Shown here in pieces: positions 10,978-39,981 of a stretch of DNA of 64,000 nucleotides (the stretch's first letter is position 1; each line of letters opens with the position of its first letter). The stretch is taken from contig JBHYGA010000005.1 in the NCBI GenBank assembly GCA_051859245.1, positions 256,001 through 320,000 on the forward strand, given 5' to 3'. Made by a program: the position numbers and the translations under genes. The notes beneath the pieces were generated by a model. That model ran no database searches. It worked only from the letters and a program-made list of their open reading frames with translations, and had not been told where the DNA came from. This DNA comes from Gemmatimonadaceae bacterium (GTDB lineage Bacteria; Gemmatimonadota; Gemmatimonadetes; Gemmatimonadales; Gemmatimonadaceae).

Positions 10978-12078
10978 TCAGGCCGCCTGACACTGAATGC
11001 TTCGGCCGTTCATCGAGATGTTGACCGGGTAGCGAACACCCTGAATGACCTGATCGTTCATACCGAACAACACAAAGCGAGTCTCGTTGACTGACAGGTA
11101 CGCCGTTGTTGTACGCGTCTCGGTTTGCAGCGCGCCGTTAAATGTGAACCGATAGGTACCGGTGACACTGCAGAACGCACGAACGTTTCCGGTGTTTCTC
11201 AGGTACACCCGGTACTCGTTGCCCAATGAACCGGTAGATGAGTTGTAGTAGCCTTCAGCGACAAGCTCGTAGCGAACAACCGGCGTCGGCGGCGTCGGAG
11301 GCGTGGGCGTTGGCGGCGCGGGATTGTTTCCACCACCCTGTAGTTCGAGTGTTCTGCATTCACCGTCGCGCAACGTCAATGTGGATGGGCCCCATGAACC
11401 TCCGCGACTGTCCGTTGCCTGCACTGTGTGCGGCCCCGCTGGCAGCGTGAGCGTGACGGCATCAGGTGCGCCGCAACTTGGTGCAGAGGTGTAGAAGCGA
11501 TTGATCACGCCTCGAACAACATTGTTGACAGTCACCGTGATTGCACCGCAGTTCGCGCACGACGACCACACCATCAGCCGCGTGGGCGATGCGGGCGGTG
11601 TTGGTGGAGTCGGCGGCGGGGCAGGTGGCGCCGGCGGTTGTGGCGGTGGAGCTGTGGGCGGGGGTGAAGTCGGCGGAGGTGTGGTTCCCATTTCCACGAT
11701 TACGATGTTCACAGAACCCGCTGAGCTGGCCACCACGCGAAACGCTTTTGACGACTGCAGCGCGTAAGAGTCCCACCGACACCCAGCCGGAGATCCGCAG
11801 TTCCACAACTCAACGACCAGCGAAGCACCAGCCGTCAGCGTGATCGTCTGGCCAGACTGCAACGCGCCGCCTGGTCGAAGCGTGATGGCACCGGAAAAGT
11901 CGTTGCGTATCGACAGCGTCTGTTGTGTCGGAGGTGCCGTGGGTGGCGGTGGTGTGGGTGACGGCGTTGGCGCTGGGCCCGTCTCAACGGGACCAGGATC
12001 GCCTGCGCAGGATACCGTCACAGCGACAGCTGCACACGCGAGGAGCATCCGAAATGCACGCTGTGTCTTTGCCATCAT
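10978..12078 (-). CDS. Proline-rich lipoprotein, hypothetical
   Basis: RBS AAGAGG then MMAKTQ; lipobox VTVSC; three beta-rich domains separated by PTPP linkers. Confidence 0.7.
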   Translation of the reverse strand: MMAKTQRAFRMLLACAAVAVTVSCAGDPGPVETGPAPTPSPTPPPPTAPPTQQTLSIRNDFSGAITLRPGGALQSGQTITLTAGASLVVELWNCGSPAGCRWDSYALQSSKAFRVVASSAGSVNIVIVEMGTTPPPTSPPPTAPPPQPPAPPAPPPTPPTPPASPTRLMVWSSCANCGAITVTVNNVVRGVINRFYTSAPSCGAPDAVTLTLPAGPHTVQATDSRGGSWGPSTLTLRDGECRTLELQGGGNNPAPPTPTPPTPPTPVVRYELVAEGYYNSSTGSLGNEYRVYLRNTGNVRAFCSVTGTYRFTFNGALQTETRTTTAYLSVNETRFVLFGMNDQVIQGVRYPVNISMNGRSIQCQAA

Positions 12079-12163
12079 CGTAATCCTCTTGAGGTAAGAC
12101 GCGAGATCGTTATCGAGTTGCACAATCGACCAGCTACGCCTGCGTTGTCACTGCGATGGCGTG

Positions 12164-13513
12164 CTAATTCGCGATCTTCTTGATCACTTCACTCACAAAC
12201 GTTCCTGCGTCTACGCTCAGTGCGATGGTTGGTCCCCATCGCCGTCGCGATTTGGTGCCGCACGCATCTGCCAGTCCACTCGATTGACAGAGCGCTGGGT
12301 TCTCGAGCACCTCGATCTTCTCTACGCGAGCAAGAACGAGCACGTCGAGCGGAAAGCCGGACGGAAGCCCACTGATCCATTCGCCAACGGAGAAGCCAAC
12401 GTACTGCGTCGTTCTCGGCGCAACGATGTCGGCCGCAAGCGCAACAGAGAGTCCACCGGTGCTAGGAATCGGAATCATCGCGCCCACAAGCGCGCCTGTA
12501 CCGCTACGCAGCGTATCGATCGCCGCTGTTGCGGCGCTGTCGTACGAAACTTTTGAACCGTCGGCGAGCACGCGTTCAACACGAATCCCCGGTGCGGTCC
12601 CGTTTCGACGAGTGATGTAGCTTTCGTGAACGAAAGCGGCCGCTCCTAATACGAACTGCGGAAGTCGCCGAGCTTTCACCTCGTACGTAATGCGAGGATT
12701 GACAAATCGATATCCGGCCGCGCTGAGTCCGGTTGCGACGAGTTGCTGCTTACCAGGCTGCGTGCCGAGCCGCCAGTCGGTAGACACAAAACACCCCGTC
12801 GCGCCTGATGCCACCGAACTGGCGTCTCCGGAACCGTACACGAATCCAACTGCCGTGTCCGGGCTGATCACCGCACCCGCACTGCGCGATGAAAAAGCCA
12901 CTCGAATGCTTGAGCATAGCTTGCGGTCAATAACGGCCGAGCGGCTGTCTACGCCTCCGGTGTCAGAAAAAAACAACGGAGACATCTTCTCCGCGTCTAC
13001 GCTACGCTCGGCTCGAACTTGCAGAACGATCTCGCTTCCTGTCGCTGTTGCGTAGCGTTGTTTTGAGGGCGATTGCACCTTCTCCAAGACCAGCGCTTGA
13101 TCGCGCGGACTCAGTCGGATGTACAGCAGCGAAGAGCCGGTACCGATTGGCAAGTCGACTGCGATGCCGACGTCGGACGAGCTGCCTGTCCGATACCACG
13201 ATGTGCGAACCACGCCGTCTTCGTCCGAGTAGACGGTGTCGCGAGTTAGCGCGCCGGCGTTGGCCTTGAATACCACGCGTCTACCTACGAGCGGCCTTGA
13301 AGTGAATCGCAACTGGATATCGAAAAGCTGCACCTGGTCACCGCTCGCAAGCGTGCCCACGCACACGCCGGGAGCATCGTGTTTCAGTTTTCCCTGACAC
13401 GCGACCAACGAGGAGGGATCGACACTAGCGCTACTCTGGGCCTCTGCAGTAAGTGGAACAAGCGTAGCTACCCCGCAAAGCAAAGCTGCGTGCAGCCTCC
13501 GCGACGTCGGCAT
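12164..13513 (-). CDS. Secreted hypothetical protein with Ig-like segments and a beta-strand-rich C-terminus
   Basis: Signal peptide ending AEA|QS; WRLGTQPGKQQLVAT resembles an Ig/invasin-like segment; alternative start 13558. Confidence 0.65.
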   Translation of the reverse strand: MPTSRRLHAALLCGVATLVPLTAEAQSSASVDPSSLVACQGKLKHDAPGVCVGTLASGDQVQLFDIQLRFTSRPLVGRRVVFKANAGALTRDTVYSDEDGVVRTSWYRTGSSSDVGIAVDLPIGTGSSLLYIRLSPRDQALVLEKVQSPSKQRYATATGSEIVLQVRAERSVDAEKMSPLFFSDTGGVDSRSAVIDRKLCSSIRVAFSSRSAGAVISPDTAVGFVYGSGDASSVASGATGCFVSTDWRLGTQPGKQQLVATGLSAAGYRFVNPRITYEVKARRLPQFVLGAAAFVHESYITRRNGTAPGIRVERVLADGSKVSYDSAATAAIDTLRSGTGALVGAMIPIPSTGGLSVALAADIVAPRTTQYVGFSVGEWISGLPSGFPLDVLVLARVEKIEVLENPALCQSSGLADACGTKSRRRWGPTIALSVDAGTFVSEVIKKIAN

Positions 13514-13545
13514 GGAGACAAGTCGCTGCGCTTGACGGTGTAACG

Positions 13546-13944
13546 TCACCATGGCCACCGGTCCCCATTCCTCAGGTTGACGGCATTCGCTTGTACGGTG
13601 GACGAAGGCGTGGCAACGAATACGTTGGCCGCGGCGTGAACGCGCACTCCATTGAGCGGCAACCCACTGCCCCAGTAGTTTGCGAGATCCACGTTTTCAA
13701 TCACGACATCCCCGCCGATAGGCATCAGCGTCCAGTGAACAATTCCAGTGGGGCGCTTCGCGATGAAATCGAGATCAAGTATGCCGTCAGCTGGTGGCTG
13801 GATGTAAACCCATGCCGTGAGCTGTGGCTCTGTCCACCCGGATGAGTTGACGACGCCCACTGCGTGCACCGCGAGCGCAGGGGGACGGATTTTTAAGAGT
13901 GCCGTAGTTACTTCCTTCACTTCGGCAACGCGCACATAAGGCAT
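13546..13944 (-). CDS. Hypothetical protein (132 aa, beta-rich)
   Basis: Protein-like ORF (SSGWTEPQL..YIQPPADGILDLDFIA) with a GGAG RBS; first gene of the leftward unit. Confidence 0.75.
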   Translation of the reverse strand: MPYVRVAEVKEVTTALLKIRPPALAVHAVGVVNSSGWTEPQLTAWVYIQPPADGILDLDFIAKRPTGIVHWTLMPIGGDVVIENVDLANYWGSGLPLNGVRVHAAANVFVATPSSTVQANAVNLRNGDRWPW

Positions 13945-13983
13945 TTGACGACTCCAGATGGCGTGATTGATGCGATCCCCGTA

Positions 13984-14012
13984 TTGAGATGGACAAGACA
14001 GCGTTTTTTCTC
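13984..14012 (-). promoter_or_regulatory. Candidate ECF promoter, motif A (GAGAAAA-N10-TGTCCATCTCAA)
   Basis: Same boxes and spacing as 19764-19792; points to the 13944 operon. Confidence 0.6.
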
Positions 14013-14087
14013 AGCAATCACGCTTCCGCCAGTCCCAATCGGCGAATAGCTTCGCGCAGACGCTCTTCCTGATCCGCCCCGCCCGCC

Positions 14088-14858
14088 GTGTCCGACGAAG
14101 CGAAATTCCTCGAGCTGCTGCCAACGATCGACAGCCTGACCGCCGCGCTTTGCCGACGACGTGGGTTGGATCGTATCGAGGCTGAGGAGTTTGGGGCCGA
14201 TGTGCGCGCCCGATTTGTCGAGTCGGATTACGCGCCCATTCGCCAGTTCCGAGGCGAGAGTTCGGTTGCGACGTATCTCGCGGTCGTAATCTCCAGTTGG
14301 CTTCGTGACTATATCGTCGCGCGTGACGGCCGCTGGCGTCCATCGGCGGCGGCACTTCGCGCTGGGCCAGTGGCCGTGCATCTCGAACGACTGGTGCAGA
14401 GGTCGGGACGTACTCGCGAGCAAGCGATTGCCGAAGTGCTCTTGGCGGGCGACCAACCGTATTCTGAACGTGAGCTGCGTGCGATCGCACTCTCATTGCC
14501 GTCTCGCGAGCCCCTGCGCTTGCGCAGGGTTTCCGAAAGTGACCGTGAGTTCGAAGCGTCGCCTTCTTCGCTCGCCGATGCGGATGTCTCAAGCGGCGAG
14601 CGAGACCTGGAAATCGAACGGGCGAGTCGGGCGCTGAACTCAGCGCTCGAAACGCTCGAGACTGAAGACCGTTTGCTCGTGTCGATGCGATTTCTCGAAG
14701 GGCACAGCGTCGCCGATATTGCGCGCACGCTGACACTCGACCAGAAGCCCCTCTATCGACGACTGGAGCGCAGTCTGTCTGCGTTGCGGCGTCATCTTGA
14801 ATCGGTGGGTATTACACCAGACACCGTTCGCGACCTGGTCGGAGGGGCGGAATCATGA
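14088..14858 (+). CDS. ECF-type sigma-70 factor (CHAT-associated)
   Basis: Region 2 (EAEEF..QFRGESSVATYLAVV..LRDY) and region 4 HTH (DRLLVSMRFLEGHSVADIARTL..KPLYRRL). Confidence 0.88.
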   Translation: MSDEAKFLELLPTIDSLTAALCRRRGLDRIEAEEFGADVRARFVESDYAPIRQFRGESSVATYLAVVISSWLRDYIVARDGRWRPSAAALRAGPVAVHLERLVQRSGRTREQAIAEVLLAGDQPYSERELRAIALSLPSREPLRLRRVSESDREFEASPSSLADADVSSGERDLEIERASRALNSALETLETEDRLLVSMRFLEGHSVADIARTLTLDQKPLYRRLERSLSALRRHLESVGITPDTVRDLVGGAES

Positions 14859-14865
14859 GCGGGAC

Positions 14866-14894
14866 GCGAACTTGGGCGGCACTGTCCTTCTATA
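14866..14894 (+). promoter_or_regulatory. Degenerate copy of motif A (GCGAACT-N10-TGTCCTTCTATA) upstream of anti-sigma
   Basis: TGTCCnTCT at the same spacing as the other two copies. Confidence 0.45.
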
Positions 14895-14939
14895 CCTGTG
14901 TGCCAACGACGCTCAACGGTGTGCAGCGGTGGAGGCGAT

Positions 14940-15782
14940 GTGGCTGAGTCCCCGCTCAATGCTGAGCAAGTTGCGGCGTTTCTCGACGGCCGGTTGTCAG
15001 ACGCTGAGCGCGCGGTGGTGCTGGCGCAACTTGCGGAATCACCAGAGTGGCAAGACATCGTGGTCGATGCCGCTGCCGTTCGCGACACGAACGCTTTGAT
15101 CACGCCCGCGCGCGCTACGAGCGCGCCACGCTTTCGATTCAAGCGCGGTCTGCTGCTCGCGGCTGCGGCCGGCTTTGTAGTGTTCGTGACTCTCTGGAAC
15201 AAGGGCAGAGCAGGCGTGAACGGTGAATCACCGGCGGTCACGCCAACCAACGCGCTGGCACTCGCTGTTGCAGACGGAACACTCCGTGAGCTTTCGACAG
15301 ACAGATGGTCGGTGGTGCGCTCGGCTTCCAATGATGTTGACGAACTGGCGCGTGCAGTACGACTGGGCGCGCTGTCGGTTGATGCCGTGCTGGATCGCAC
15401 TGGCGCAGGCGCAGTCGCACGAGAAGAGATGCTCGTGTTGCTGCAGGAGCTCAACGCGTCTGCGGCGCGGCAGCTCGTTGCGTCAGCGCGTGACTCGGCT
15501 TCGTTCGACGTGGCGTTTGCGTCGGTACGCGCACTCGTGAATACGGATGCGTATGACGCGGGTGTATGGCTGGAGCTGCTACGCGCGGGCAGCGTCGCGG
15601 CTCGCGAGAACACCAACATGATTCAGGTATTGCAGAGCGTTGCACGAACCAAACAGCTGTCGCCGGAGCGCGCTACGGAACTGTCGGCGCGCATCCGGCG
15701 ACTTGAAGACGTTTTGCCTTCCGCCGAGCCTTCACGTGTACGTGAAGCCGCGACGGATGTTATGAAGATCCTGGCGTCGTAA
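14940..15782 (+). CDS. Putative anti-sigma factor (zf-HC2-like N-terminus, one TM)
   Basis: GGAGG RBS, GTG 14940; EQVAAFLDGRLSDAERAVVLAQLAESPEW (zinc ligands lost), TM LLLAAAAGFVVFVTLW; follows the ECF gene. Confidence 0.75.
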   Translation: MAESPLNAEQVAAFLDGRLSDAERAVVLAQLAESPEWQDIVVDAAAVRDTNALITPARATSAPRFRFKRGLLLAAAAGFVVFVTLWNKGRAGVNGESPAVTPTNALALAVADGTLRELSTDRWSVVRSASNDVDELARAVRLGALSVDAVLDRTGAGAVAREEMLVLLQELNASAARQLVASARDSASFDVAFASVRALVNTDAYDAGVWLELLRAGSVAARENTNMIQVLQSVARTKQLSPERATELSARIRRLEDVLPSAEPSRVREAATDVMKILAS

Positions 15783-15809: not shown

Positions 15810-16571
15810 TCAGTTGTCGGGACAGTCGATGCAGTAAGCAGAAGGGCAGAGGCGGTATGGGTTCTCATAGCCCGCGCCGCGGACAATATTCGCCATCGTG
15901 CAAACTTTCTTCAGATCTGGCCCGAAATAACGAGGAACAGCCACTTGCATGTCGCAGAGTGCAAGGAGGTCGTCTGTTTCCTCCAGGTGTTCCCCCGACT
16001 TGGTCTCGCCACAATCCGGCGCCTGATCCTTGTCGGTTAGATTTTCGATCGTGACAAAAATGTTCGACACGCTAGTGTCCAAGTTTATCGGTGCTCCGCC
16101 GCTGAATGTTCCCTTGTCATTCAGCTCCAGTGATGCTGCACCGGCCGCATTGAGTCGTATGCTCGTGCCGTAATCCAATTGGTAGGACTCACCGTTGAAG
16201 CTGACGGGTCCAATGTTTCGAGCGCTCTTTCGCTCCAGCACCTGCAGAGGCAATCGCAGGGATGCGAACACGTCGCGGGAAAGTGCAGGATTCGCCGAGC
16301 CCGCAGCAGACGAGGCTCTCGCGCGCACTTTCAACATCCAAGGTGGTACCTGTGAGTCTGGTGCTGCGCCAGCGGTAAGTCCCTTTGTGGTCAGCGTGAA
16401 GTCCTGGAGCGTCTGACGAACTGGGTCAACAGCTTTCCCGTGCGTGTCGATCGTCAGATACGGACGGTGCTGCTGATTCGACCCAACAGCCTTCGGAAAC
16501 AAAACATCCCAGTGTTCCTTCCTGCGAATCCAAAGCGACAATCCTTCCACAGAGATCGTAACCGTCGTCAC
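15810..16571 (-). CDS. Hypothetical protein downstream of CHAT protease, Cys-rich C-terminus
   Basis: AAGGAG RBS overlapping the CHAT stop, GTG at 16571; ends CPSAYCIDCPDN. Confidence 0.7.
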   Translation of the reverse strand: MTTVTISVEGLSLWIRRKEHWDVLFPKAVGSNQQHRPYLTIDTHGKAVDPVRQTLQDFTLTTKGLTAGAAPDSQVPPWMLKVRARASSAAGSANPALSRDVFASLRLPLQVLERKSARNIGPVSFNGESYQLDYGTSIRLNAAGAASLELNDKGTFSGGAPINLDTSVSNIFVTIENLTDKDQAPDCGETKSGEHLEETDDLLALCDMQVAVPRYFGPDLKKVCTMANIVRGAGYENPYRLCPSAYCIDCPDN

Positions 16572-16585: not shown

Positions 16586-19500
16586 TTAGCTCCCCAAGAG
16601 CTGGAAGGCGGCCCACACACGGGGAGAACGTCGTGTGGGATCCTGTGAACGAAGTCCCGCGAGTTGCGCCTCGCGCAGGGCGTGCGCCGGCGTCGCGCCG
16701 CCGCGCAATGCAACGTGCAACTGTTCCATGATCGCGGCGGTCGCTTGATCGTCGATTGCCCACGACGCGCCAATGACATGCTTTGCACCGGCCTCTCGAA
16801 AGGCACTCGCCAACGACAACATGCCGCCGCCAAAACGCGAGGTATTGTTCGATGCCCCGGCGCGCACGCCGCCGCGGGTATCGCACGCGGCGAGCACAAC
16901 AAGTGCCGTGCGCGGGAACGACGCCGCGGCCACTTGCACGCCCGTGATTCGAGTATCGCCGTTCGCAGGCAACTCCAGATATGATCGTTCGGGGCGCTCC
17001 GGATGCAGCACTGCGTGACCCGCAAAGTGCACAATCTCGTAGGCGGGCATTCTTGCCAGTGTCTGTGTTGCACCCTGCGCGGCGTCGAGCGCTTCACTTT
17101 GATTATCCCACACCGCGCTCAATCGCTGTACTTCGCTCTGCGCTCCGGGAAGTGCGCGTGATCCGGAACGCGGTGCGGCATCGATAACCAGAACACGCGC
17201 ACGATTCAGGCGTGTCTCATTTGTCAGGCGCTGCCCGATGTCGTTTGTGAGCCAGATCGCGGCTCGCTCGATAAGGAACCGATCGGCACTGGCATCGAAC
17301 AGCGCGGCCCAGGATACGTCAGACAGATCGCCGCGCGCGTCGATTCGTATTGCGCGCACCGCTCGGCTGGATGTGGCGAGTGCCGGCGCAACTAGCGCCG
17401 TGAAGAGCGTGGAAAGTTGAGAGGTCTCCAGCGTTCTGATGGCGCTGTGGACAGTTCGTGCCGGAAGGTACGATCTATGTACGCTCCAGCCGCCGCCGTT
17501 TCGTGACCACACGAATACCGTGTCACCAAGGCGGCGTGCGGCGAGATCAAGCCGAGTGGTATCGCTGTCCCACGTGGGCAGCCGGGCCGCCATGAACGGC
17601 CTCGCCGAGAGCGCGTACAAGAGCGCCTCGGCGTCGCCTCGTTTGCGCAGCAGCTCCGCGGCAGCTTCGCCGGCCGACACGGCGCTCTCCGAGAGTCGAA
17701 CTCGTTCAGACAACGAAGTGTTTTCGCCGCTGCGTGCTTCGAGTGATCGCAGCAGCGAGTCGAGCACTCGCAGCGCGGTCACCGTGTCGCCTTCCTGCGC
17801 GATTGCGCGGGCCAGAGACAATCGGGGGCGCAACTGGCGCGCGCTATTGGTATCGCTGGCCATTAATGCGATCGAAGAGTCCAGAAGTGCTCGCGCACCA
17901 CGCTGGCGAGTGAGGAGTTGATACTCACCTTTGATCCACGATCGTTCTGCACGATAGAAGCGTTGGTCGGATTCCGCCAACTGCGCATGCACGACAGAGT
18001 CGAGCGAGCCAATTACGCGCCTAAGTCCGGCACTGTCCCGTTGACGCGAGCGAGAGTGCGCACGCAGCACAAGTTCCTGCGCGACAAGATCCGGACGTGC
18101 GAGCTGTTGCGCAACGTGCACCGCTTCTTGATGGAGGAGATCCGAGAGTGTGTGGTGGCCGTAGATCTCTGCCGTTTGTCGCAGCACGGACAACAGGCTC
18201 CAGCGCGACGCACCAAGTGGTACAACACTCCGCTCGAGTGCACGCTGCGTGTTCTGTTCGCTGCGCTCATCATCACCGACCAGCGTTGCAATGCTCGCCG
18301 CCATAGCATAGGCCGACAGCGCACATTCGTTGCGGCCGATTGCACCACAACGTTCGGCTTGTAGTTCAACGCGTTGCAGGCCACTCACTTGCTCACCAAG
18401 TGCCATGAGCGCCAGGCCTTCATTGAACGCCAGTCGTCCGCCGAGCACTGTGGTTGGCGAGCGTTGCCCGGCACCGAGCGCCCGGTATGCTCGCAGCGCT
18501 TCGCGCGATCGGCCGCTGGTTAATAGGTTGTTCGTTCGATACATCGCGGCCCACAGTCGCAGCTCGTCTGAAGCACGCGTAAGTGTGGCGACCGAATCAA
18601 ACATCGCGTCGGCGGTGAGTGCTCCGTGCACACGTGTCTTTCGTCGAGCCTGTGCGTACAGGTCCGCGGCGCGAACAAGCGAGCGCTGTCGTTCCGAGCC
18701 GGCGCGGGCTTGTGAGATCGACGAGATTGCGTGTCCAATGCTCGAATCCGCCAACTGCGATTGCAGGTTCTGATGAATGTGGAGTAGATCGCGGCGCAGC
18801 GTAGTCTCACGGAGGCTATCGCCGCTTGCGAACCGTTGCGCCCACTCGGGGAGCAGCTGTGTGGTCGCATAGTCCCACGCGGCGTCAGGCCATTGGCCAC
18901 TCAGGGCAATGGCGCGTTCGTCGGTGCCCAGAGGTGGGCTGTTATCAATGATCACCGGAAGTTTGCACTGCAGACGGGCGCATGACCTCTCACAGTGGTC
19001 GCGTGTACGTGCGATCTGCTGGCGTAGCGAAAGCCAGGCGAGGGAGACGATCGCGTTCCAGCAGGATAGACGGTCCGGGTTGTCGCGATTCACAAAAGTC
19101 GACGCGAGTTCCGCCGCCTGCAGGAGATCCGGCAGCCTGCGATTCACGCTGTATCGAAGCAGCAGTGTTGCGGCGAGGTCATTGCTGAACTGCGCTCGCG
19201 CCGGGGCAGCGAGGACAGCCTCAGTGAGCAGTGCAATCGCGCGGTCGACGCCCACAGAGTCCGCTGCAGCGACGAGTTGCACGAGCGCGAGTTGGTGAGC
19301 CGACTCTGGTGTCGGGCTGCTGGTATGCCTCGCGGCGAGCGAGCTTTCGATTGCGGCAAGTTCTTGCAGGTCGCTCGGCGCGGCGACACGTGTGGACGAC
19401 GTGCAAGACGGCTGTGGTGCTGCGAGGTATATCGTGTCGCAGGTGTGTCCGGGTAGCGCCGAGAGCGCGGCGGCGAATCGCCAGTTCTTCGCGAACGGTG

Positions 19501-32189: not shown

Positions 32190-32214
32190 GCAACGTGCGA
32201 CCGCCGCACGTTGC
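32190..32214. terminator. 10-bp perfect hairpin between the two caspase genes
   Basis: GCAACGTGCG-ACCGC-CGCACGTTGC; no clear poly-U tail. Confidence 0.45.
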
Positions 32215-32224
32215 GTACAACAAA

Positions 32225-34318
32225 CTATTTCCGCTTCGGCACAGTATCGAGAATATCAATGCGGTGCGATAGCGTAGTCCAACCGACAATAGGCTTGGGA
32301 TTTGAACGCCACTTGCCGCTATCATTTGGGCCTTTGTCGTTAGGACCGCGCGCGCCGTCGCAGGCGCCGAACGACTCGACGAGCGGCTGGAAGCTGAACT
32401 GATCAGAGTTCACAACCATCTTCAGCATTTCACTGCCGACCGGTTCCAGCATTGGAATCGACTCACCGACAAGTATCCATTTGTTCATCTCGATCGGAGA
32501 ATGTGGAATACCTGCCGGAGGCCACAGCACAGCTGGATCGGAGGTGTAGCCGCCGATCGCGATGGTCATGTACAACGACGAGATTTCGGCTTGCTGCAGC
32601 TGTGCGTCTGCCCGAGCGTACACATCGTAACTTTTGCCCAGGAGAACTGAGTCGGGTATTCCCGCAGGGCGCAGACCACGCGGTGCCCCTGCTCCCGCAG
32701 GCACTAAACGTATGTCCAACGTGAGACCTGTTGGCGGTGTTGGATTCTCGATGCTATTGAGCGACGTGATCGAAAGCGCGCGAATCAGCGGGCGGCACAG
32801 CGCGTTGCCACGATAGCCCACGATAGAATCCACTCGCACTGCCTCGTCTGGCTGCGGGGCCAGGGCGACGCCGTTTACAAAGACCCGCGCAACGCCGAGA
32901 CTCTGAGCAACGATGGCGTCTGCAGACGCGGAATCCACGATCACAAAGCGGCTCGAGTCTCGGCGTACTTCCGTCGCTAACGCCATGGCGCTCTTGTCGA
33001 AGTACACTTTCAATCGATCAACGCGATTCGCGCCGAGCGGAACACGCGACAGGACGGCGCGTGCACTGACCGGCAGCGTCGGTTTGGTGAACGAACTTCC
33101 GGCGGCGCCGAGCACGCTGCCTTGCTCATCGACGTACACGGCGAAAGCTCGTTCGGCAACCACAGAGTCAACGCGTACTCGCGCAATGGGAGCCGAGGAA
33201 AACTGCACCTCGCCAGAGCGATACACGTCGTAGTTCGCGGTCTTTCGCACACCGTGAATAGCGCCGGCGTCGAGGACCAGCCGACCACCCACTTCTCGCG
33301 CCGTGACGAACGGCTGTGCTGCCACGCCTTCGTTGGATTTGAAAATCAGAGCCGTCTGATCACCTTCGAGCTGCGGCACCTGCGGCAGCATTGCGCCGCG
33401 CACGTTCGATCGCAAACGCTGAATGAGCTCGTCGTACCGCAGTCCACGTGTTCCCGCGGCACCGTCAAGGGCGCGCGTCAGATGATACGTCATCGCGCCA
33501 ATCCACACACGCGTTCCGTCTTCATCATACGGAAGCTCCTGCGCCGTTTGGTCACTGCGCGCCGCGGTGATCAACGTGTGTCCACGCGCTTCGGTGAAGT
33601 CCGCGAGGCCGCCCGTATCTGGCAGCGCGATCGTGTCTGGTTTGGGGCCCTTGTCCCGCCCGACGGCATCACCATCTCCACGCGTCACGGTGCCAGAATA
33701 GCACGCATCAATAATGATCGTGACGTTCTCGGTGCCGAGCGCTTTCAGATACGCTCGAATGTCATCATCAAGCACCAGCTGCGACGGATTGTGCGCGTCC
33801 TCCGCATCAAACGGTACAAGTCCCTCGTCACGTCCGTCCGGCTCATCTTTGTCCACACCATCGGGCGCGTGCGATCCGTGACCAGAAAAGTAGATCACCA
33901 CCGCGTCATCTTTGGTCAGCGCGCGCTCAGCCAACCACTTGAATCCAGCCGCGATCCCGGCCTTGGTCGCCGAGGAGCCGAGCAATACGCGCGTGTCTTC
34001 GGTGGCGCCAAAGCCCCAGCGATTCAGGCTGACCTGCAGGCGTTTTACATCGTTCTCCGGGCCCTGCAAATCGGACAGCGGCTTTGTCCCCGCTCCAAAA
34101 TGCTGGTAGTCCGCAATGCCGATCAGCAGCGAAATCTTGCGAGGAGCACGCGTAACCTTCGTTCCGACGACATCCGCCGCGTGGAGACGCATCTCGGCGC
34201 TCGAGGCGCTGGCGAGAGCAACTGGGAGGGGACGCGACCACCCCAGGGAGATGGAAGCGCTTGCCAAGATGGTGGCGACGGAAGCCGTGCGGACAACCTG
34301 TTTGCGCGATGGGCGCAT
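32225..34318 (-). CDS. Secreted peptidase C14 (caspase/metacaspase family) with C-terminal DUF4384-like domain
   Basis: LLIGIADY, LQGPENDV, YFSGHG (His 33878-33880), IDACYSGTVTRG (Cys 33701-33703), QVPQLEG, LDAGAIHGV. Confidence 0.92.
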   Translation of the reverse strand: MRPSRKQVVRTASVATILASASISLGWSRPLPVALASASSAEMRLHAADVVGTKVTRAPRKISLLIGIADYQHFGAGTKPLSDLQGPENDVKRLQVSLNRWGFGATEDTRVLLGSSATKAGIAAGFKWLAERALTKDDAVVIYFSGHGSHAPDGVDKDEPDGRDEGLVPFDAEDAHNPSQLVLDDDIRAYLKALGTENVTIIIDACYSGTVTRGDGDAVGRDKGPKPDTIALPDTGGLADFTEARGHTLITAARSDQTAQELPYDEDGTRVWIGAMTYHLTRALDGAAGTRGLRYDELIQRLRSNVRGAMLPQVPQLEGDQTALIFKSNEGVAAQPFVTAREVGGRLVLDAGAIHGVRKTANYDVYRSGEVQFSSAPIARVRVDSVVAERAFAVYVDEQGSVLGAAGSSFTKPTLPVSARAVLSRVPLGANRVDRLKVYFDKSAMALATEVRRDSSRFVIVDSASADAIVAQSLGVARVFVNGVALAPQPDEAVRVDSIVGYRGNALCRPLIRALSITSLNSIENPTPPTGLTLDIRLVPAGAGAPRGLRPAGIPDSVLLGKSYDVYARADAQLQQAEISSLYMTIAIGGYTSDPAVLWPPAGIPHSPIEMNKWILVGESIPMLEPVGSEMLKMVVNSDQFSFQPLVESFGACDGARGPNDKGPNDSGKWRSNPKPIVGWTTLSHRIDILDTVPKRK

Positions 34319-34466: not shown

Positions 34467-34534
34467 TTGTCCTTCACCGGCAGCAGAATAGGCGATCCCA
34501 AACGCCCAGGCGCTCGGTCGACGCGAGTGCTCGA

Positions 34535-34559
34535 TGGCATTTTCTCCCGGCACCGGCAT
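34535..34559 (+). promoter_or_regulatory. Candidate autoregulatory ECF promoter, motif B variant (TGGC-N15-CGGCAT)
   Basis: -10 box ends 7 nt before the sigma ATG at 34567. Confidence 0.55.
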
Positions 34560-34566
34560 CTCCTGC

Positions 34567-35214
34567 ATGGATGAACGCTCGTTGAGCGAATTGCTCGTTA
34601 CTCTGCGCGATGGCTACGAGCACGAGCGCGACGTTGCATGGGCGGCTTGCTACAGTCAGTTTCGCGATTTGGTGTGGACCCGGGTGTTTTATGTTATCCG
34701 TACCATTCCGTGGCTCCCGGAGCCGCGCGAGGTCGTGGAAGAAATCACAAGCGATGTCTTCGTCGGGTTGCCGACGGCGGTGCGCGCGTATCGTGACAAT
34801 GGGAAAGGGGAGCAGTGGCTCAAGCAGGTGGCCGTGCGGACAGCGTTGCGGGCGCGGGAGCGTATTACAGGTGATTGGAAAAGACGCGATCCTTCTGCGT
34901 TGTCGGCCTCGCTCGATCGGCCTGGCCGCATCTACTCTTCGTTCGACCATCATGCGAATGACATCGTTGACGCGCTGGATGCGATCAAACGCGACGAGCT
35001 CCTGGAGCTCGAACGTCGGATCGACGTGATGCGAAGCAGTGCCGATCCGCGGCAGCAGCGGTGGGCAACATTTCTCGATTTGTATCGGGAAGGCTTCGGC
35101 TTTGCAGAGATCGGCCAGCGCATGGGGTTAACCGAGGGAACAGCTCGTAACTGGCTCGTGGAAATCAGGCGGCAGCTGGCAACACCGCCCGCCGAGGTGC
35201 GTCTGCATGGCTGA
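34567..35214 (+). CDS. ECF-type sigma factor
   Basis: AWAACYSQF..EEITSDVFV..QWLKQVAVRTAL region 2; EGFGFAEIGQRMGLTEGTARNWL region 4 HTH. Confidence 0.85.
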   Translation: MDERSLSELLVTLRDGYEHERDVAWAACYSQFRDLVWTRVFYVIRTIPWLPEPREVVEEITSDVFVGLPTAVRAYRDNGKGEQWLKQVAVRTALRARERITGDWKRRDPSALSASLDRPGRIYSSFDHHANDIVDALDAIKRDELLELERRIDVMRSSADPRQQRWATFLDLYREGFGFAEIGQRMGLTEGTARNWLVEIRRQLATPPAEVRLHG

Positions 35215-35953
35215 GCGTCACAGCAGCACGTCGGATCCCGACGATGACCCGTTGCGTCCGCTTCATGCGCCGGATGACGAGGACACGCAGCGTGTAGAAG
35301 CGATGCTCAGCTTGTCGAGTCGCGCGCCCGTTTCACTCGATGCCCGCGTCGCTTCTCGGCGTGAAGCCGGAGACCACGTACTGCTTCCGGTGCCGGAAAC
35401 TGAGCCCACGTCCACGCGCGAACATCGCTCTCCGGCGCGGCGATTCATTCTGCCCGCCGGCATCGCGGCCGCGGCTGTGCTCTCGTACTTCCTGTTCCCC
35501 CAGACGGAGAAGAGTTCGGCCGGTGATCAGCGATTGGCACAGAGCGATTCGAGTGTGCCCGCGAGCGCTTCCGACTCGGTCCACGAACCGGCGTCTCACC
35601 GCGACTCGTCGTCATCCCGCGCGGACCGACTGCCGAGCACCACGCCCGAACGCGGCGATGTTGCGCTGGGTTACCGTGGCGCGGGAACGGCGATCTTCAC
35701 GGCACGAATGCGCGACTTTCGCGAGACGACGGTGGATTCGGTAGCCGACGCCACACTGCGCGACACGACGTACAACATCATCATCTCGCATCCGACGGGT
35801 AACGCCGAACTCGCCGCGCTGGCCAAACGGATTGGGCAGGCGCTGACAGGTCGTGGTGTGAAGTTGTCAGCCGTGCACATTGACGAGGGCGGAGCCGCCG
35901 CTTCCATCGGCGCAGTAACCATTGAGGTTCGATCGGCAGATCGGATCCCCTGA
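35207..35953 (+). CDS. Putative anti-sigma factor, single TM
   Basis: Overlaps the sigma stop; TM FILPAGIAAAAVLSYFLF, Ser-rich linker, small C-terminal domain. Confidence 0.65.
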   Translation: MAERHSSTSDPDDDPLRPLHAPDDEDTQRVEAMLSLSSRAPVSLDARVASRREAGDHVLLPVPETEPTSTREHRSPARRFILPAGIAAAAVLSYFLFPQTEKSSAGDQRLAQSDSSVPASASDSVHEPASHRDSSSSRADRLPSTTPERGDVALGYRGAGTAIFTARMRDFRETTVDSVADATLRDTTYNIIISHPTGNAELAALAKRIGQALTGRGVKLSAVHIDEGGAAASIGAVTIEVRSADRIP

Positions 35954-35997: not shown

Positions 35998-37431
35998 CTA
36001 TCGACCGGGAATCCGGTCCGCAAACGGTGCCCAATCGAACACCGAGAGCGCGAAGTACAACTTCGGTTTTCCATACCCGTCAACAATGCGCACCTGCGAC
36101 GCATCGGCCACAACGTCACCAACGCGCGCGCCCACGAGCGATTGCTGCCGCATCCACATTGCGCCAGCGCTGACCTTCAGAAAACCGAGCGACACCGCAG
36201 TACCAATGCCGGCTCCGGTCACATCACCTGCGGCAACAACAACCTCAGGTAGCCACACCGCAAGGCCACTGCCGTCGCGGCGATCGAGGCCCCTCCAGGT
36301 GAAGCCCAGTGTGCCGCCGAGTCCAAAGCGACGGTCCGTCCGTCCGCTTTCATAAACGCGTGCTCCGCCATCCACATCCTCGGTCGCGTACGTCGGAAAC
36401 CGTCCGCCCGGTGCAGCGATGCCAGCAATCGCCACCGCCGGTCGAATGAACGGCTGGGGCTGCACAATGACCGTGTACTCGGCCACCTCACGACTTGCAA
36501 TGCGAGCCAGTTCGGCCTCGGTGCGCGGCTCTACGCGGATCGTGACGGACCGTCCGCTCGTGCGGCTCCCTTTCGCAACACCTGCGCTCCATTTCGAGCA
36601 GGAGTTCGCAACAATGCCAACGAGTCGTTCCGCACGATAGGCGCTGGCCAGCAGCGATTCAAAGTCTGCCAAGGCAGACTGCGCACGCACATCGAGCACG
36701 CGCACCGAATCGCGCAGCGCTTGCCATCGCGCGTCTTCGTACGATTGCCCGAGTGTGGCGACTCGCATGTTCTCCGTGGCACCACTCAGGGCAACCAGAG
36801 ACGAGAGCAACGACTCCGCCGTCGGCAGACGCACCGGCTCTTGTGCTCCGCATGACTGCCCCACACTGAGCCGGCGACGCAGCGGTTCCGCTGCCACTTC
36901 CGGTGCAACGTTGCGTCGCATCTGTTCAAGCGCGAGCAGTGTGGTTGTGATCGTTGGCTGCAACCCGCGCTCACCAAACACCGCTTCGTCGATTTGCATC
37001 AGGCTTCGCTCCGCCGTGCCCAGCGCGAGCGCGAGTGCCAGGCGCGCGTCAGCGACATTCTGTGCGGGCTCGATGAAGCCTGCGCCACGCGAACCCGAAA
37101 GTGCGGACCGTAGCTCGGGCACATACGGCGTGAGTCGGCTCGCGAAACCCGACAGCGCCTGCGCCTCCGGCAGTGGGACCGACGCGCTGGTCCGACTGAA
37201 GTTGTACAGCGCCGTGTTGGTGTTCACCACGTCGATCTCCACCGGTACATTATGCGGCAATCGGACCACCGCGTGACTTCCGAGCGCACTGGTGTCCGCC
37301 CGTACGCCGCGCTGTACAATCAGTCGCAGTGCTCCGGTCCCGTGATCGATTTCAACGCGCGCGCGCTGCGCGCGTGCATCAGTGGCGACGAGAGCAATCA
37401 GGACGAGGAGTATGACGGATCGCAAGCGCAT
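35998..37431 (-). CDS. Secreted hypothetical protein (paralog of 37636-39114)
   Basis: Signal peptide ending ARA|Q; beta domain, helical middle, beta-rich C-terminus. Confidence 0.75.
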   Translation of the reverse strand: MRLRSVILLVLIALVATDARAQRARVEIDHGTGALRLIVQRGVRADTSALGSHAVVRLPHNVPVEIDVVNTNTALYNFSRTSASVPLPEAQALSGFASRLTPYVPELRSALSGSRGAGFIEPAQNVADARLALALALGTAERSLMQIDEAVFGERGLQPTITTTLLALEQMRRNVAPEVAAEPLRRRLSVGQSCGAQEPVRLPTAESLLSSLVALSGATENMRVATLGQSYEDARWQALRDSVRVLDVRAQSALADFESLLASAYRAERLVGIVANSCSKWSAGVAKGSRTSGRSVTIRVEPRTEAELARIASREVAEYTVIVQPQPFIRPAVAIAGIAAPGGRFPTYATEDVDGGARVYESGRTDRRFGLGGTLGFTWRGLDRRDGSGLAVWLPEVVVAAGDVTGAGIGTAVSLGFLKVSAGAMWMRQQSLVGARVGDVVADASQVRIVDGYGKPKLYFALSVFDWAPFADRIPGR

Positions 37432-37471
37432 GATGCTGGTTGGTTGGTGGGAACAAGGAGCCAGGCACAGA

Positions 37472-37497
37472 ATGCCGGTGACGGTCATTCCGTGTCA
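37472..37497 (-). promoter_or_regulatory. Candidate ECF promoter, motif B (TGAC-N16-CGGCAT)
   Basis: Back-to-back with the copy at 37520. Confidence 0.55.
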
Positions 37498-37519: not shown

Positions 37520-37544
37520 TGACGTTCCAGAGGTTTAGCGGCAT
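37520..37544 (+). promoter_or_regulatory. Candidate ECF promoter, motif B (TGAC-N15-CGGCAT)
   Basis: Upstream of 37636. Confidence 0.65.
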
Positions 37545-37635
37545 TCAAAGTACAACGTGGTCAGACGCGAGTCCCGCAGCACCGAAGGGTCGCTTTGGGA
37601 TGCCAGACGAAGACACACACTATCACCGACACCAG

Positions 37636-39114
37636 ATGTCGCTTTCCCGCAAGCTTCTCACGGCGATGTTTCTCGCGACGGCGCTGCCAACACTGGCCCC
37701 CGCGCAGCCAACCACGGCTACCCGCGCGGCGGCAGTCGACACGTCGCGCGCTCGCACGCGACCCGCCCGCGTGGTGTCGTCCCGAGATCCGTGGACGGTT
37801 GTCTATGATCACGTTACAGAAACGATGAAAGTGAGCGACCATCGAGGTCGCATCCAGTCATCTTTTGCTGGCGCATCGTTGATTGATGGTCCGGTGGTCC
37901 GCATTCCACCCGACCGTCCGGTGGAAGTACGCATCACCAATGCGAACCCCATGTTGTACCGGTACGATGTTACAGGTCCGGTGGTACAGGAGCGTCGAGC
38001 GCGAAGCTGTCGTTCGGTGCTCGGGACATTTGCGCAAGCGGGCCTTCAGTTCAGCGCCGCGAACATTGCTGGCGTGCAAACCAAGTGGACCACCGACACG
38101 CTGATGCGCAGGGTGTTCTCGGCGTCTGACCTCGCACGGCTTGGTGGGACCGCCGTGCGCGGTGAACCGCTCAGCGACGCTGATCGTGCGCGTACGATTA
38201 GCCTCGTGCAAGAGCGTGTGGAGTCGTACGAATCACGGGCCGAAGCAATCGGTGATTTTGCCTCCACCATCGATGACTCGCTGGCACGAATCGCTGAACT
38301 CTCCGATGCGACGCCCTCTGGTACGATGCTCGACGGCCTCGCGGGTACGATTCGCAAATTCCTGCCCAGTGCAAACCGCTCTGTTGATGTTCCGCTGTCA
38401 CTTCGCGCACTCGAACAAGAGGCGCAGCAACCGGCTACGGTGCTGATGCAGCTTGCTGCGACCGGCGACAGTGATGTACGACCGCTTCGCATTCGTTTCG
38501 ATAGCGCGTTAACGCAGATCGCTGCAAGCTACCGAAAGCTGCAAGCGCAGCTGTATCAGATCGAACAATATCAACTTGGCGTTGATCAGCGTTGGACGCT
38601 TGACCCGAGCGCCGACTACCGCGCGGTACGCATTCGCATGGAGGCGACGTCAGGCTTTGCCGAGATTCCGCGCTTTAAAGCGGGAACAGTGGAGGCCTTG
38701 ATCAACCCGATCAGTCGAGTGGCGTGTAGTCTGGCTCCCGGCTTGACGATCGCGAACGCGCCACGTGCGTTTGCCCTCCGGAACGACACCATCGTGAGTG
38801 CCAATAAATCAGATCAGCGTGCGGCACCGGCCCTGCAGTTGCACCTCGACATCGTGGATTTTCCATTGCCGGTCGGCGTGCTCGCCGGAGTGGGACTGGG
38901 CGTGAATCAGCGACCGGATTGGTATCTCGGTGGGAGCTTTCGACTGACTGACATTGTGCGCCTGAATGCCGGTACGCTCTGGCAACGGGAAGAACAACTT
39001 GGCAGTGGTCGCGAGCTCGGTTCCATAGTGCCACCGGCGCAGCGCCCCGCATTTGATGCGAGGACGCAGAAGTTTGCGCCGGCGTTTTTCTGGGGAATCA
39101 GTTTGGTGCCGTGA
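37636..39114 (+). CDS. Secreted hypothetical protein (paralog of 35998-37431)
   Basis: Signal peptide ending APA|Q; VVRIPPDRPVEVRITNANPMLYRY matches the paralog. Confidence 0.75.
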   Translation: MSLSRKLLTAMFLATALPTLAPAQPTTATRAAAVDTSRARTRPARVVSSRDPWTVVYDHVTETMKVSDHRGRIQSSFAGASLIDGPVVRIPPDRPVEVRITNANPMLYRYDVTGPVVQERRARSCRSVLGTFAQAGLQFSAANIAGVQTKWTTDTLMRRVFSASDLARLGGTAVRGEPLSDADRARTISLVQERVESYESRAEAIGDFASTIDDSLARIAELSDATPSGTMLDGLAGTIRKFLPSANRSVDVPLSLRALEQEAQQPATVLMQLAATGDSDVRPLRIRFDSALTQIAASYRKLQAQLYQIEQYQLGVDQRWTLDPSADYRAVRIRMEATSGFAEIPRFKAGTVEALINPISRVACSLAPGLTIANAPRAFALRNDTIVSANKSDQRAAPALQLHLDIVDFPLPVGVLAGVGLGVNQRPDWYLGGSFRLTDIVRLNAGTLWQREEQLGSGRELGSIVPPAQRPAFDARTQKFAPAFFWGISLVP

Positions 39115-39151
39115 CTTTCGAACTGACGTGAGCCTCTTGTGCACCGAAGTA

Positions 39152-39901
39152 TCAGTTTGTTGTCAGCCGATATCGATTGTAGTACACGTCGTCCCAGTTC
39201 TTGATGACCAGCCTGTGCGTGCTCGTGGTCCTCGGATACCAGTCCAATACGCAGAAGTCAGTATCGTCAACATCGCGTGCAACGACTCGGCCGTTCTGGT
39301 CATACACCCAGCAGTCAAGGTCTGTATCTCCGTCGCCATTCACGCGAATTGATGCCAGTACACCACCCTCAAACGCAATGCGAAACGTGTCCGTGCTGTT
39401 GGCGTCGACATCAAAGACACCTGATTTCGGTCCGTTGACGGCACCGCGTGATCCCGATGCGTTACGCTGCTGCAGCTGCGCCACCACCAAGGTGAGATTG
39501 GCATTGTCACGACCAGCTGCCTGAGCGGATGCCAGGAGTTGGCCGACGTCGAGAGAAGCCTGAGCTCCAGCCTTCTGAGGCCTCGGACCCGGCGCGCCCG
39601 CCTTGTCCGATTCAGGAACAAGGGAAAGCGGCCGCGTAGGGTTGTCGAGGAGGAGCTGCGCGGCGGCAGCGAGTGCCAATCCAGAGTTAGTGCGCTGACC
39701 ATAGTCCGCGAGCTGCGCGGCGAGCGAGACTGCTTCCACAGCGTTCTGCGTCTGGGGTGTACTCGCAGGCCTCGGACGAGCAGTGGCGCTTTCCTTTGAC
39801 GAAGGTATGCCTCCGGAAGTGGTGGCGCAGCCAGCTGCAGCGGCCGATAGCAGTACCAACGTTGAGTTGCGAGCAAAGCGGGTAGAAAACGAGTGCATCA
39901 T
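39152..39901 (-). CDS. Lipoprotein with helical N-domain and C-terminal PPC-like domain
   Basis: Lipobox AAAGC; GDGDTDLDCWVYDQNG is a pre-peptidase C-terminal-like motif. Confidence 0.8.
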   Translation of the reverse strand: MMHSFSTRFARNSTLVLLSAAAAGCATTSGGIPSSKESATARPRPASTPQTQNAVEAVSLAAQLADYGQRTNSGLALAAAAQLLLDNPTRPLSLVPESDKAGAPGPRPQKAGAQASLDVGQLLASAQAAGRDNANLTLVVAQLQQRNASGSRGAVNGPKSGVFDVDANSTDTFRIAFEGGVLASIRVNGDGDTDLDCWVYDQNGRVVARDVDDTDFCVLDWYPRTTSTHRLVIKNWDDVYYNRYRLTTN

Positions 39902-39956
39902 GCGCCTCAGAATGTGTGTGGAGCGTCAAAACATGCGCGCTGTGAACTGGTTACTT

Positions 39957-39981
39957 ATGGCGGCTCGCAGTCGCGATGTCA
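39957..39981 (-). promoter_or_regulatory. Candidate ECF promoter, motif B (TGAC-N15-CGCCAT)
   Basis: Upstream of the lipoprotein start at 39901. Confidence 0.6.

Follow-up and report, generated by a model that had tools for sequence, protein, structure and literature searches.

Is a caspase-rich 29-kb region of a Gemmatimonadaceae bacterium one signalling system? A conserved ECF sigma/anti-sigma/TPR-CHAT module beside an accessory protease island

Do four caspase-like proteases and two extracytoplasmic function (ECF) sigma factor genes that lie side by side in a bacterial genome belong to one signalling cascade? The question is raised by a stretch of 64,000 nt from Gemmatimonadaceae bacterium (assembly GCA_051859245.1, contig JBHYGA010000005.1, positions 256,001–320,000), which we analysed at its full length and call the window. 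A sequence-only reading had described its positions 10978–39981 as one system, in which exported caspases would cut two anti-sigma factors and the released sigma factors would amplify expression of the cluster. We found that the region is composite: a conserved signalling module lies beside an accessory protease island, and the 29-kb cascade is only partly one conserved system. The conserved module with its adjacent cargo extends over 14.0–21.0 kb of the window, with a four-gene core at 14.0–19.7 kb and variable cargo on both sides.

We drew up the gene map from listed open reading frames (ORFs), their codon-position base composition and matches to family models (Pfam, NCBIfam and PADLOC); export was judged by N-terminal hydrophobic stretches only, with no dedicated signal-peptide predictor. 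The core is composed of ECF1 (14088–14858, +), an ECF-type sigma factor; anti1 (14898–15782, +, likely start at 14940), a predicted single-pass class-I anti-sigma factor; and, convergent to these two, a TPR-CHAT protease (16586–19660, −, probable start M13 at 19624) and orphD (15810–16571, −), an all-beta protein of ~250 amino acids with no signal peptide, which we assigned to a family named dsX. orphD directly follows the protease gene, its GTG start lying 14 bases past the CHAT stop codon.

Homologous loci were collected by one scan of species-representative genomes anchored on CHAT (four-sequence alignment A4), in which 268 pattern matches led to 116 confirmed and 80 kept; 79 loci, designated by L-numbers, were analysed. 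All are CHAT-anchored, so the counts that follow give the sigma factor per CHAT locus, not CHAT per ECF1-family sigma. Fifty of the 79 were tabulated, those left out being the 29 with neither sigma nor dsX, apparently mostly from Melainabacteria/Obscuribacterales, and 31 of the 50 have adequate flanks (at least 3 kb upstream and at least 4.5 kb downstream of CHAT). With a hidden Markov model (HMM) of the ECF1 family, 17 ORFs scored 232–367 bits and the next best among the 6573 ORFs scored 20 and 13, a gap that indicates one specific sigma family and not ECFs in general. An ECF1-family sigma is present in 17 of the 79 loci, always within 2.7 kb of the CHAT ORF in flanks of up to 10 kb, and the hosts of these loci are 10 Gemmatimonadota, 6 Acidobacteriota and 1 unclassified. 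When the 21 window proteins were compared with the 79 loci by tblastn, relatives were retrieved for ECF1 in 17 loci, for anti1 in four (L001, L003, L014 and L024), for orphD in four and for the neighbouring PEP-CTERM protein in one. The gene order of the window, with ECF and anti-sigma genes followed by convergent orphD and CHAT genes, is observed in L001, L003, L005, L012, L014, L019 and L030; in L015, L018, L021, L024, L026, L032 and L078 the genes of the ECF, the anti-sigma (~280–330 amino acids) and the TPR-CHAT protein (~1020–1150 amino acids) are co-directional, with a dsX gene after CHAT in six of these seven loci, all but L021.

ECF1 is recognized by TIGR02937 (46.8 bits, cut-off 42.9) and PF08281 (26.0 bits, cut-off 25.7), is 86% identical to its counterpart in L001 and 62% to that in L003, and has a long conserved linker between sigma2 and sigma4 with a GRWRPS motif (family alignment A6). 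Its family comprises 1768 cluster representatives (50% identity) at E ≤ 1e-30 among 1.84e9.

The C-terminal CHAT domain of the protease (residues 749–1024; PF12770, 150.1 bits against a cut-off of 24, E = 1.2e-43) follows a lipobox-like signal/anchor, a Cys-rich N-terminal domain, in which eight cysteines are invariant within the window CHAT subfamily (A4), and helical repeats. The motifs VHFAGHAV and VVLAACDT are present, with H878 and C926 invariant in A4. Of 78 loci, 77 retain the His/Cys dyad; where an ECF1-family sigma is linked, 16 of 17 do. The N-termini of the CHAT proteins in the collected loci likewise contain anchors or a lipobox. Among 28 other proteins at E ≤ 0.001 (8000 candidates scored, 5.8e9 protein clusters), three are full-length relatives. 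Searches of the PDB with the single sequence and with the four-sequence alignment gave no match; a broad alignment of 21 CHAT sequences, too diverse for the locus search, served as profile and retrieved DdvA (8ROT) at E = 2e-20, the sole CHAT structure among the best 60 PDB matches.

anti1 is predicted to have a cytoplasmic anti-sigma domain, a transmembrane (TM) segment at residues 70–86 and a periplasmic helical domain. Its match to zf-HC2 is weak (20.6 bits, under the cut-off of 22.2; the L001 orthologue reaches 22.7), and its cytoplasmic domain does not contain the HxxxCxxC zinc motif that family members in L015, L017, L026, L060 and L078 have. We noticed a conserved RWSVVR↓S motif 41 residues past the TM segment of anti1, and all 14 aligned anti-sigma factors (A7) have one TM segment and an aromatic-x-x-x-R-[GSA] motif 34–49 residues beyond it (Arg in 12 of 14, followed by Gly, Ser or Ala in 14 of 14), which is our candidate for a cleavage site.

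Two loci connect the anti-sigma factor with the protease physically or by homology. In L060 (7430–10762, +), beside an ECF1-family sigma, a single polypeptide of 1111 amino acids combines zf-HC2 (1.4e-7), TPR and CHAT (3.6e-42), and its residues 12–313 span the whole anti-sigma profile (hhalign probability 99.4, E = 6.7e-22). In L021, the CHAT N-terminus (residues 62–244) can be aligned to the periplasmic domain of the anti-sigma factors (probability 96.4, E = 1e-9). L060 comes from an Acidobacteriota metagenome-assembled genome, outside the Myxococcota and Comamonas range that the part of PMC11506125 dealing with fused DdvA-like proteins gives for them.

The connection of a periplasmic caspase-clan protease with an ECF/anti-sigma pair, independent of CRISPR, which the sequence-only reading had put forward, is thus supported by the conserved gene set, its presence in 17 of the 79 loci, the L060 fusion and the DdvA match. 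Literature searches returned no description of a split ECF/anti-sigma/TPR-CHAT module or of dsX; only DdvA, craspase and ECF54 turned up. In type III-E craspase, Cas7-11 reportedly acts with Csx29, a protease of the TPR-CHAT type said to cleave Csx30 and so to free an ECF-type sigma. Craspase and the module would have in common a TPR-CHAT protease placed upstream of an ECF-type sigma through proteolysis of a sigma-binding protein. Nevertheless, craspase is cytoplasmic and RNA-guided, whereas the module protease has an export signal/anchor, and we detected no CRISPR array or tandem array in the window, nor any match to Cas, Csx30/31-like or CBASS models in the PADLOC scan, which covered 20 proteins of the region.

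The closest resemblance is to DdvA-DdvS of Myxococcus xanthus (PMC11506125; PDB 8ROT and 8RW5), which, in the description given in the sections of that paper on its architecture, joins an ECF sigma, an N-terminal anti-sigma domain, one TM segment and a periplasmic TPR-CHAT with a His/Cys dyad, parts that the module has or, as regards the anti-sigma domain and the periplasmic location, is predicted to have. DdvA-like proteins are further defined by a CHAT fold from which the three-helix motif is missing and by a dimer whose active sites are turned to the linker of the partner protomer. The fused form exists beside an ECF1-family sigma in L060, and the distance of the juxtamembrane motif of the anti-sigma factors from the TM segment equals that of the DdvA loop opposite the active site. 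This loop, the one closest to the dyad, is V129–P140, 37–48 residues past the TM end at L92, according to the structural part of the same paper, in which the fused DdvA-like proteins reported are confined to Myxococcota and a single Comamonas. The module differs from DdvA in that the window anti-sigma factor (280 amino acids, including a helical periplasmic domain of its own) and the anchored CHAT protein are encoded by separate genes on opposite strands, the one-polypeptide anti-sigma/TM/TPR-CHAT form occurring only in L060; in that it adds dsX as a fourth conserved partner; in that anti1 has no zinc motif and the sigma is not detectably DdvS-like; and in that the genes it is predicted to control encode secreted proteins and, in other loci, caspases. 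RseA-type anti-sigma factors (DegS/RseP), as outlined in the comparative passage of PMC11506125, are similarly single-pass proteins that receive a periplasmic site-1 clip before a site-2 protease acts, but in the module the locus itself encodes the site-1 candidate, which is a CHAT protease of clan CD and not a PDZ serine protease. In ECF54, too, the sigma gene lies next to genes for TPR-CHAT, subtilases and CarboxypepD_reg-like proteins (in the portions of PMC7826278 and PMC8999054 devoted to this group), and subtilase and CarboxypepD_reg genes occur in L021 and L003. ECF54 is, in the corresponding portion of PMC7826278, 100% actinobacterial, has no anti-sigma factor and has GTATCAG / CTCC as predicted promoter; in contrast, the module belongs to Gemmatimonadota/Acidobacteriota, has a class-I anti-sigma factor and a GGGAAA-N12-GTCCGTC promoter. 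A later ECF group may still match the ECF1 family.

The fourth core component, orphD, has orthologues in L001, L003, L004 and L005. The dsX family was defined by an HMM built iteratively from the genes that lie downstream of CHAT, which orphD matches at E = 6.5e-9, and a dsX member directly follows CHAT in 39 of the 79 loci, 14 of which also have an ECF1-family sigma. The AlphaFold2 model of orphD (pLDDT 74.5, pTM 0.79) is all-beta; it gave no PDB fold match (best E = 6.6e-3, TM-score 0.11) and no usable match in the ESM Atlas, and the protein belongs to no Pfam, NCBIfam or PADLOC family. In bacterial operons of gasdermins and caspase-like proteases, a gasdermin-family gene lies beside the protease gene. 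We considered orphD as such a gasdermin-like substrate and rejected this assignment, given that neither PADLOC, Pfam and NCBIfam nor the PDB fold comparison produced a match. The dsX alignment (A5) contains an invariant Gly10 and an invariant His35, as well as a near-invariant Cys 6–12 residues from the C-terminus, and a few dsX proteins (L034, L020 and L015) have Sec, lipoprotein or Tat-like signals.

A promoter motif gives the module its predicted outputs. A similarity of 28 bases between the intergenic regions ECF1/orphC and CHAT/PEP-CTERM recurs upstream of ECF1-family genes elsewhere, with the consensus CGGGAAAt-N12-GTCCGTCTAAt (GGGAAA as −35 and GTCCGTC as −10). The opposite reading, GAYGGACA-N12-TTTCC directed toward ECF1 and CHAT, was rejected, as elsewhere it would fire antisense into sigma and CHAT genes; the chosen orientation has canonical ECF-type −35 and −10 elements and always a gene downstream. 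A position weight matrix (PWM) was trained on seven sites, none of them from the window, and controlled with 40 Markov-1 random windows, the maximum of which was 17.7. Three window sites exceed this value: 19761–19792 (+), toward the PEP-CTERM gene (23.3, the best in the window); 13984–14015 (−), toward orphC, with a GGGAAA-like −35 and GTCCATC as −10 (19.8); and 37620–37651 (−), toward orphF inside the island (19.0). A weak site (14863–14894, +; GCGAAC-N12-GTCCTTC; 4.9) is located at the ECF1/anti1 junction, and junction sites at the equal position score 12.8 in L001 and 5.1 in L003 and are strong in L012, L018, L019, L021, L030 and L060.

The gene with the best site encodes a PEP-CTERM-type secreted protein (19900–20973, +; NF038129, 4.4e-5; TIGR02595, 17.1 bits against 16). 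Its orthologue in L001, with 75–85% identity and PF07589, is preceded by an orthologous site (22.3), and the protein is predicted from these sites to be an ECF1 target. On the other side of the core, orphC (13546–13944, −; no signal), orphB (12164–13513, −; signal-like N-terminus) and orphA (10978–12078, −; lipobox-like signal), which belong to no Pfam, NCBIfam or PADLOC family, form a predicted ECF1-dependent cargo operon, orphC-B-A; orphF is probably a further target. No ECF1-type site was detected in the window before CHAT, orphD, the three C14-type genes, M48, ECF2, orphE, orphG or lipoH.

In other loci ECF1-type sites precede anti-sigma genes (L012, L013, L018, L019, L021, L030 and L060), dsX genes (L008, L010, L011, L012, L018, L019, L020, L030 and L032) and divergent cargo, namely C14 proteases (L012, L014, L019 and L030), an astacin (L024), the PEP-CTERM protein (L001) and surface proteins (L003). 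Three of the dsX promoters (L008 12915–12946, L010 12465–12496 and L011 5760–5791) have no ECF1-family sigma within 10 kb, which points to a sigma from another part of the genome that acts on them in trans. The C14 proteases divergent from ECF1-family sigmas are small and have no signal peptides (L012 14742–15935, L014 5112–6209, L019 14531–15664, and in L030 both 13663–14667 and 14695–15642, the promoter facing the first); through these small C14 proteins facing ECF1-type promoters, a signal at the envelope may have an output inside the cell.

Taken together, we read the module as a split, trans-acting relative of DdvA-DdvS, with the accessory protease island beside it, and give this reading a somewhat better than even chance. 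anti1 would keep ECF1 at the membrane, and its periplasmic domain, homologous to the membrane-proximal part of CHAT proteins, would pair with CHAT in the way of two DdvA protomers. Upon a periplasmic signal, the His/Cys site of CHAT would cut anti1 in trans at aromatic-x-x-x-Arg↓Gly/Ser/Ala, ~40 residues beyond the membrane; processing would be completed by a site-2 protease and ECF1 would be freed. The sigma would then transcribe, from GGGAAA-N12-GTCCGTC, orphC-B-A, the PEP-CTERM gene, probably orphF and, weakly, anti1 itself. The gene set and its conservation, the fusion, the promoter motif and the catalytic dyads are direct observations, whereas the topology and pairing of the two proteins, the cleavage of the anti-sigma factor by CHAT at this site, the order of events and the signal are those we infer from these comparisons.

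Several points weigh against this reading. The CHAT-orphD operon has no ECF1-type promoter in the window or in L001 and is convergent to ECF1-anti1, so that here co-regulation of CHAT and ECF1 is argued from adjacency alone, and the training sites of the PWM were chosen by a pattern first seen in the self-comparison of the window and in L001. Among the 31 well-flanked loci, 25 have dsX and 14 an ECF1-family sigma; CHAT-dsX thus operates in the absence of an adjacent ECF as well. orphD and most dsX proteins have no signal peptide, which leaves the place of dsX in a periplasmic scheme unexplained. The N-terminus of the window CHAT subfamily showed no significant alignment with the anti-sigma domain (probability 12, E = 0.0024). 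A PDB search with ECF1 gave sigma4 matches only, so the sigma is not detectably DdvS-like and its link with CHAT may have arisen independently. Finally, the autoproteolysis of the DdvA CHAT domain is a proposal and not a demonstrated step in the section of PMC11506125 that discusses it.

The main rival reverses the direction: ECF1/anti1 would be an ordinary pair of envelope-stress type, and TPR-CHAT and dsX, with C14, astacin and subtilase elsewhere, merely its regulon. The proteases, secreted or induced, would have other substrates and serve, for instance, to remodel the envelope, to feed or to attack, and the fused proteins of L060 and DdvA would have a sensor domain that is CHAT-like by coincidence. 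The promoters before anti-sigma-CHAT operons and before dsX, C14, astacin and PEP-CTERM genes in other loci speak for it, since they make CHAT, dsX and caspases transcriptional targets, as do the 17 of 31 well-flanked loci in which CHAT-dsX has no neighbouring sigma and the three loci without one (L008, L010 and L011) that still carry the promoter before dsX. However, an anti-sigma domain is fused to TPR-CHAT in one polypeptide and the anti-sigma sensor domain is homologous to CHAT N-termini, both of which argue for direct physical coupling, and the status of target does not exclude a sensor role, because anti-sigma factors are usually members of their own regulon. The promoter data fit both readings, and we consider this rival rather unlikely.

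What, then, of the remaining proteases? They lie in an island of ~21.5 kb (20974–42487) that contains three C14-type proteases, an M48 protease, a YD-repeat protein, orphans, ECF2/anti2 and a kinase. The first of the three, a protein of 1311 amino acids (21027–24962, −), consists of a signal peptide, a PPC-like domain, a beta-propeller, a caspase-like domain and a WD40 propeller. It gave no Pfam C14 match, even with residues 640–1000 alone at E ≤ 10; the caspase model of PADLOC matches at 1.7e-4 and NF047832 at 3.2e-4 (20.2 bits, cut-off 140). The motifs ISTHG and LDACHS of the protein (H~772 and C~830) align with the dyad of C14-TPR (BLASTP E = 0.045), and some of its 91 relatives have PF00656 or are named caspase family protein. 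The protein thus resembles a caspase-fold domain in sequence, with membership of C14 unproven. C14-TPR (1033 amino acids; 29051–32152, −; PF00656, 60.7 bits against 21.4) and a C14 protease of 697 amino acids with an unknown C-terminal domain (32225–34318, −; PF00656, 80 bits against 21.4) have visible His/Cys motifs and signal-like N-termini, and form with a small DUF6531 and RHS/YD-repeat protein (27816–29054, −; signal-like N-terminus) an operon-like run (27816–34318, −). Of the four exported caspase-clan proteases with intact dyads that had been claimed, TPR-CHAT and the two C14 proteins stand, and the case is weaker for the divergent 1311-residue protein; as to export, an N-terminal hydrophobic stretch is present in all four, weakest in the 697-residue C14.

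The second sigma gene, ECF2 (34534–35214, +), matches PF07638 (25.9 bits against 21.1) but stays below the cut-off of TIGR02937 (36.7 against 42.9), and no similarity was detected between ECF1 and ECF2. It overlaps anti2 (35207–35953, +), a one-TM protein of no known family, with no anti-sigma family match and, in the ESM Atlas, only a match of 0.88 to an unnamed cluster. The two ECF genes, each followed by a one-TM protein, are present as had been described. The M48-TPR protease (25912–27807, +; PF01435, 1.1e-13; export-like N-terminus) and the YD-repeat protein were likewise confirmed by family scans. The orphans of the island are orphE (25168–25710, −; 180 amino acids, no signal peptide and no family), the signal-bearing orphF (35998–37488, −) and orphG (37636–39114, +; start set at 37636 in a long ORF that opens at 37252) and the lipoprotein lipoH (39152–39901, −), and the island ends with a Ser/Thr kinase with TPR found by the family scans (40147–42513, −).

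None of this belongs to the conserved gene set. By tblastn against the 79 loci we retrieved no relative of orphA, orphB, orphC, orphE, orphF, orphG or lipoH, and none of the 1311-residue protein, M48, YD, ECF2 or anti2; 10 of the 12 island genes have no relative there, the exceptions being the C14 domain and the kinase. By tblastx with L001, a close relative, L001 8051–8587 corresponds to window 42503–43039 (89% at the amino acid level) and abuts L001 8795–9505, which corresponds to window 20164–20874 (85%); L001 continues with orthologues of the amidase (94%) and ABC (89%) genes of window 44.0–49.9 kb, and in L003 the amidase is also ~4 kb from CHAT. The island is absent between the L001 orthologues of its flanks, and therefore was inserted here or deleted there; no integrase, tRNA or flanking direct repeat of more than 9 bp was found around it. 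GC3 is 0.61–0.72 across the genes of 11–42 kb, the module included, and 0.72–0.80 in the listed flanking genes. In our view the island occupies the place where the module has its variable cargo and lies outside the conserved system, a view we hold jointly with our reading of the module and with the same slight preponderance.

The proposal of one cascade over the whole of 10978–39981, in which four sensor-bearing caspases would cut both anti-sigma factors and effectors and the sigmas would amplify the cluster, has in its favour that all parts are present, mostly with export-like N-termini, that orphF, within the island, is preceded by an ECF1-type site and that C14 ORFs are found repeatedly near CHAT (13 in 12 of the 79 loci, six of them alongside the ECF1 family; the large ones, of 678–800 amino acids, carry signal peptides like the 697-residue C14 of the window). 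However, the 21.5-kb part with three caspases, M48, YD and ECF2 was found in none of the 79 loci and is missing in L001 between conserved flanks; in the neighbourhood comparison ECF1, the anti-sigma factor, orphD and TPR-CHAT recur together, and the three caspases, M48, YD and ECF2/anti2 do not. Upstream of the four protease genes of the window we detected no promoter of the ECF1 type, so that the amplification of caspase genes by a released sigma is not seen. ECF1 and ECF2 are unrelated, and the R-G/S linker motifs said to be shared by the proteins are at chance level, with 134 R[GS] dipeptides observed and 157.6 expected (composition shuffles, 21 proteins). One system with four caspases and two sigma pairs, whose positions 20974–42487 fail the co-conservation that the sequence-only reading had itself set as a refuting test, is for these reasons very improbable. 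The island could instead be a self-contained second system, in which ECF2/anti2 would control the divergent C14/C14-TPR/YD operon, as output or as signalling partner, independently of ECF1-CHAT. The C14 operon diverges from ECF2 across a gap of 215 bp, ECF2 shares 8 bases with anti2, and L012, L014, L019 and L030 show a divergent layout of ECF1-family sigma and C14 with the promoter facing the caspase. Against this, anti2 has no anti-sigma family match, the inverted copies of GGGACGAAC described below are not above chance, and the 697-residue C14 has 35 relatives, 33 nearly full-length, none of which shows a fusion with an anti-sigma domain such as zf-HC2. We regard such a second system as possible, with a less than even chance.

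Additional intergenic motifs were inspected in the island half. GGGACGAAC was rejected as an ECF2 promoter element, with 13 matches (at most one mismatch) against 21 expected, and its exact inverted copies at 34391 and 34448 were not above chance. A second shared motif of 25 bases, ATGCCGnTAAACCnCTGnnnCGTCA, occurs in two copies only (25813–25837, −, and 37520–37544, −; 22 of 28 bases matching), in the divergent intergenic regions orphE/M48 and orphF/orphG; its spacing is unlike that of a sigma-70-family promoter, and it may be an operator or leader element. orphF and orphG are divergent weak paralogues of ~490 amino acids (BLASTP E = 5e-6) with no family match. Each half of the region had been credited with its own repeated promoter motif; two shared motif pairs do exist, but the second spans both halves. 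The chance estimates for both pairs involve a circularity, since the matches being assessed had supplied the patterns, and whole-window k-mer counts for repeated motifs gave GC-rich noise only.

Outside the region, a c-di-GMP-I riboswitch (RF01051; 7528–7617, −; 74.2 bits against 35) lies at and just upstream of the 5' end of a glycosyl-hydrolase-39-like ORF (5531–7555, −), overlapping its listed start by 28 bases, in a setting of polysaccharide synthesis genes (Wzy_C, GT1/GT4 and flippase-like, 4–5401). The window also encodes a second Ser/Thr kinase with TPR (56238–58781, −), another PEP-CTERM protein (59372–60304, −) and a protein with a YadA head and a Peptidase_S74 chaperone domain (60941–62542, +).

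The striking picture of four caspases thus stems from an accessory island beside the module and not from one system. DdvA-like logic is seen here in two further phyla, with protease and anti-sigma factor as separate proteins, and for this reason a site-1 cut by a caspase-fold protease that frees an ECF sigma becomes directly testable; the analysis yields for it a promoter motif, predicted regulons, a candidate cleavage motif and a conserved partner, dsX, of unknown fold. More tentatively, and as a prospect we think unlikely at present, the module may represent a widespread, undescribed envelope-signalling device of Gemmatimonadota and Acidobacteriota, in which an anchored periplasmic CHAT protein would act as trans site-1 protease with a cut after a P1 Arg and with dsX as partner, and the freed ECF1-family sigma would induce cargo or caspases. 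If this were true, dsX would be a co-factor, inhibitor or substrate of the CHAT device, and the natural split form would make the autoproteolysis hypothesis for DdvA testable. The freed sigma would then induce secreted cargo that differs between lineages and, in Longimicrobium, C14 caspases without signal peptides; in this way a protein cue in the periplasm, possibly of a phage or a competitor, would be relayed inward to intracellular caspases.

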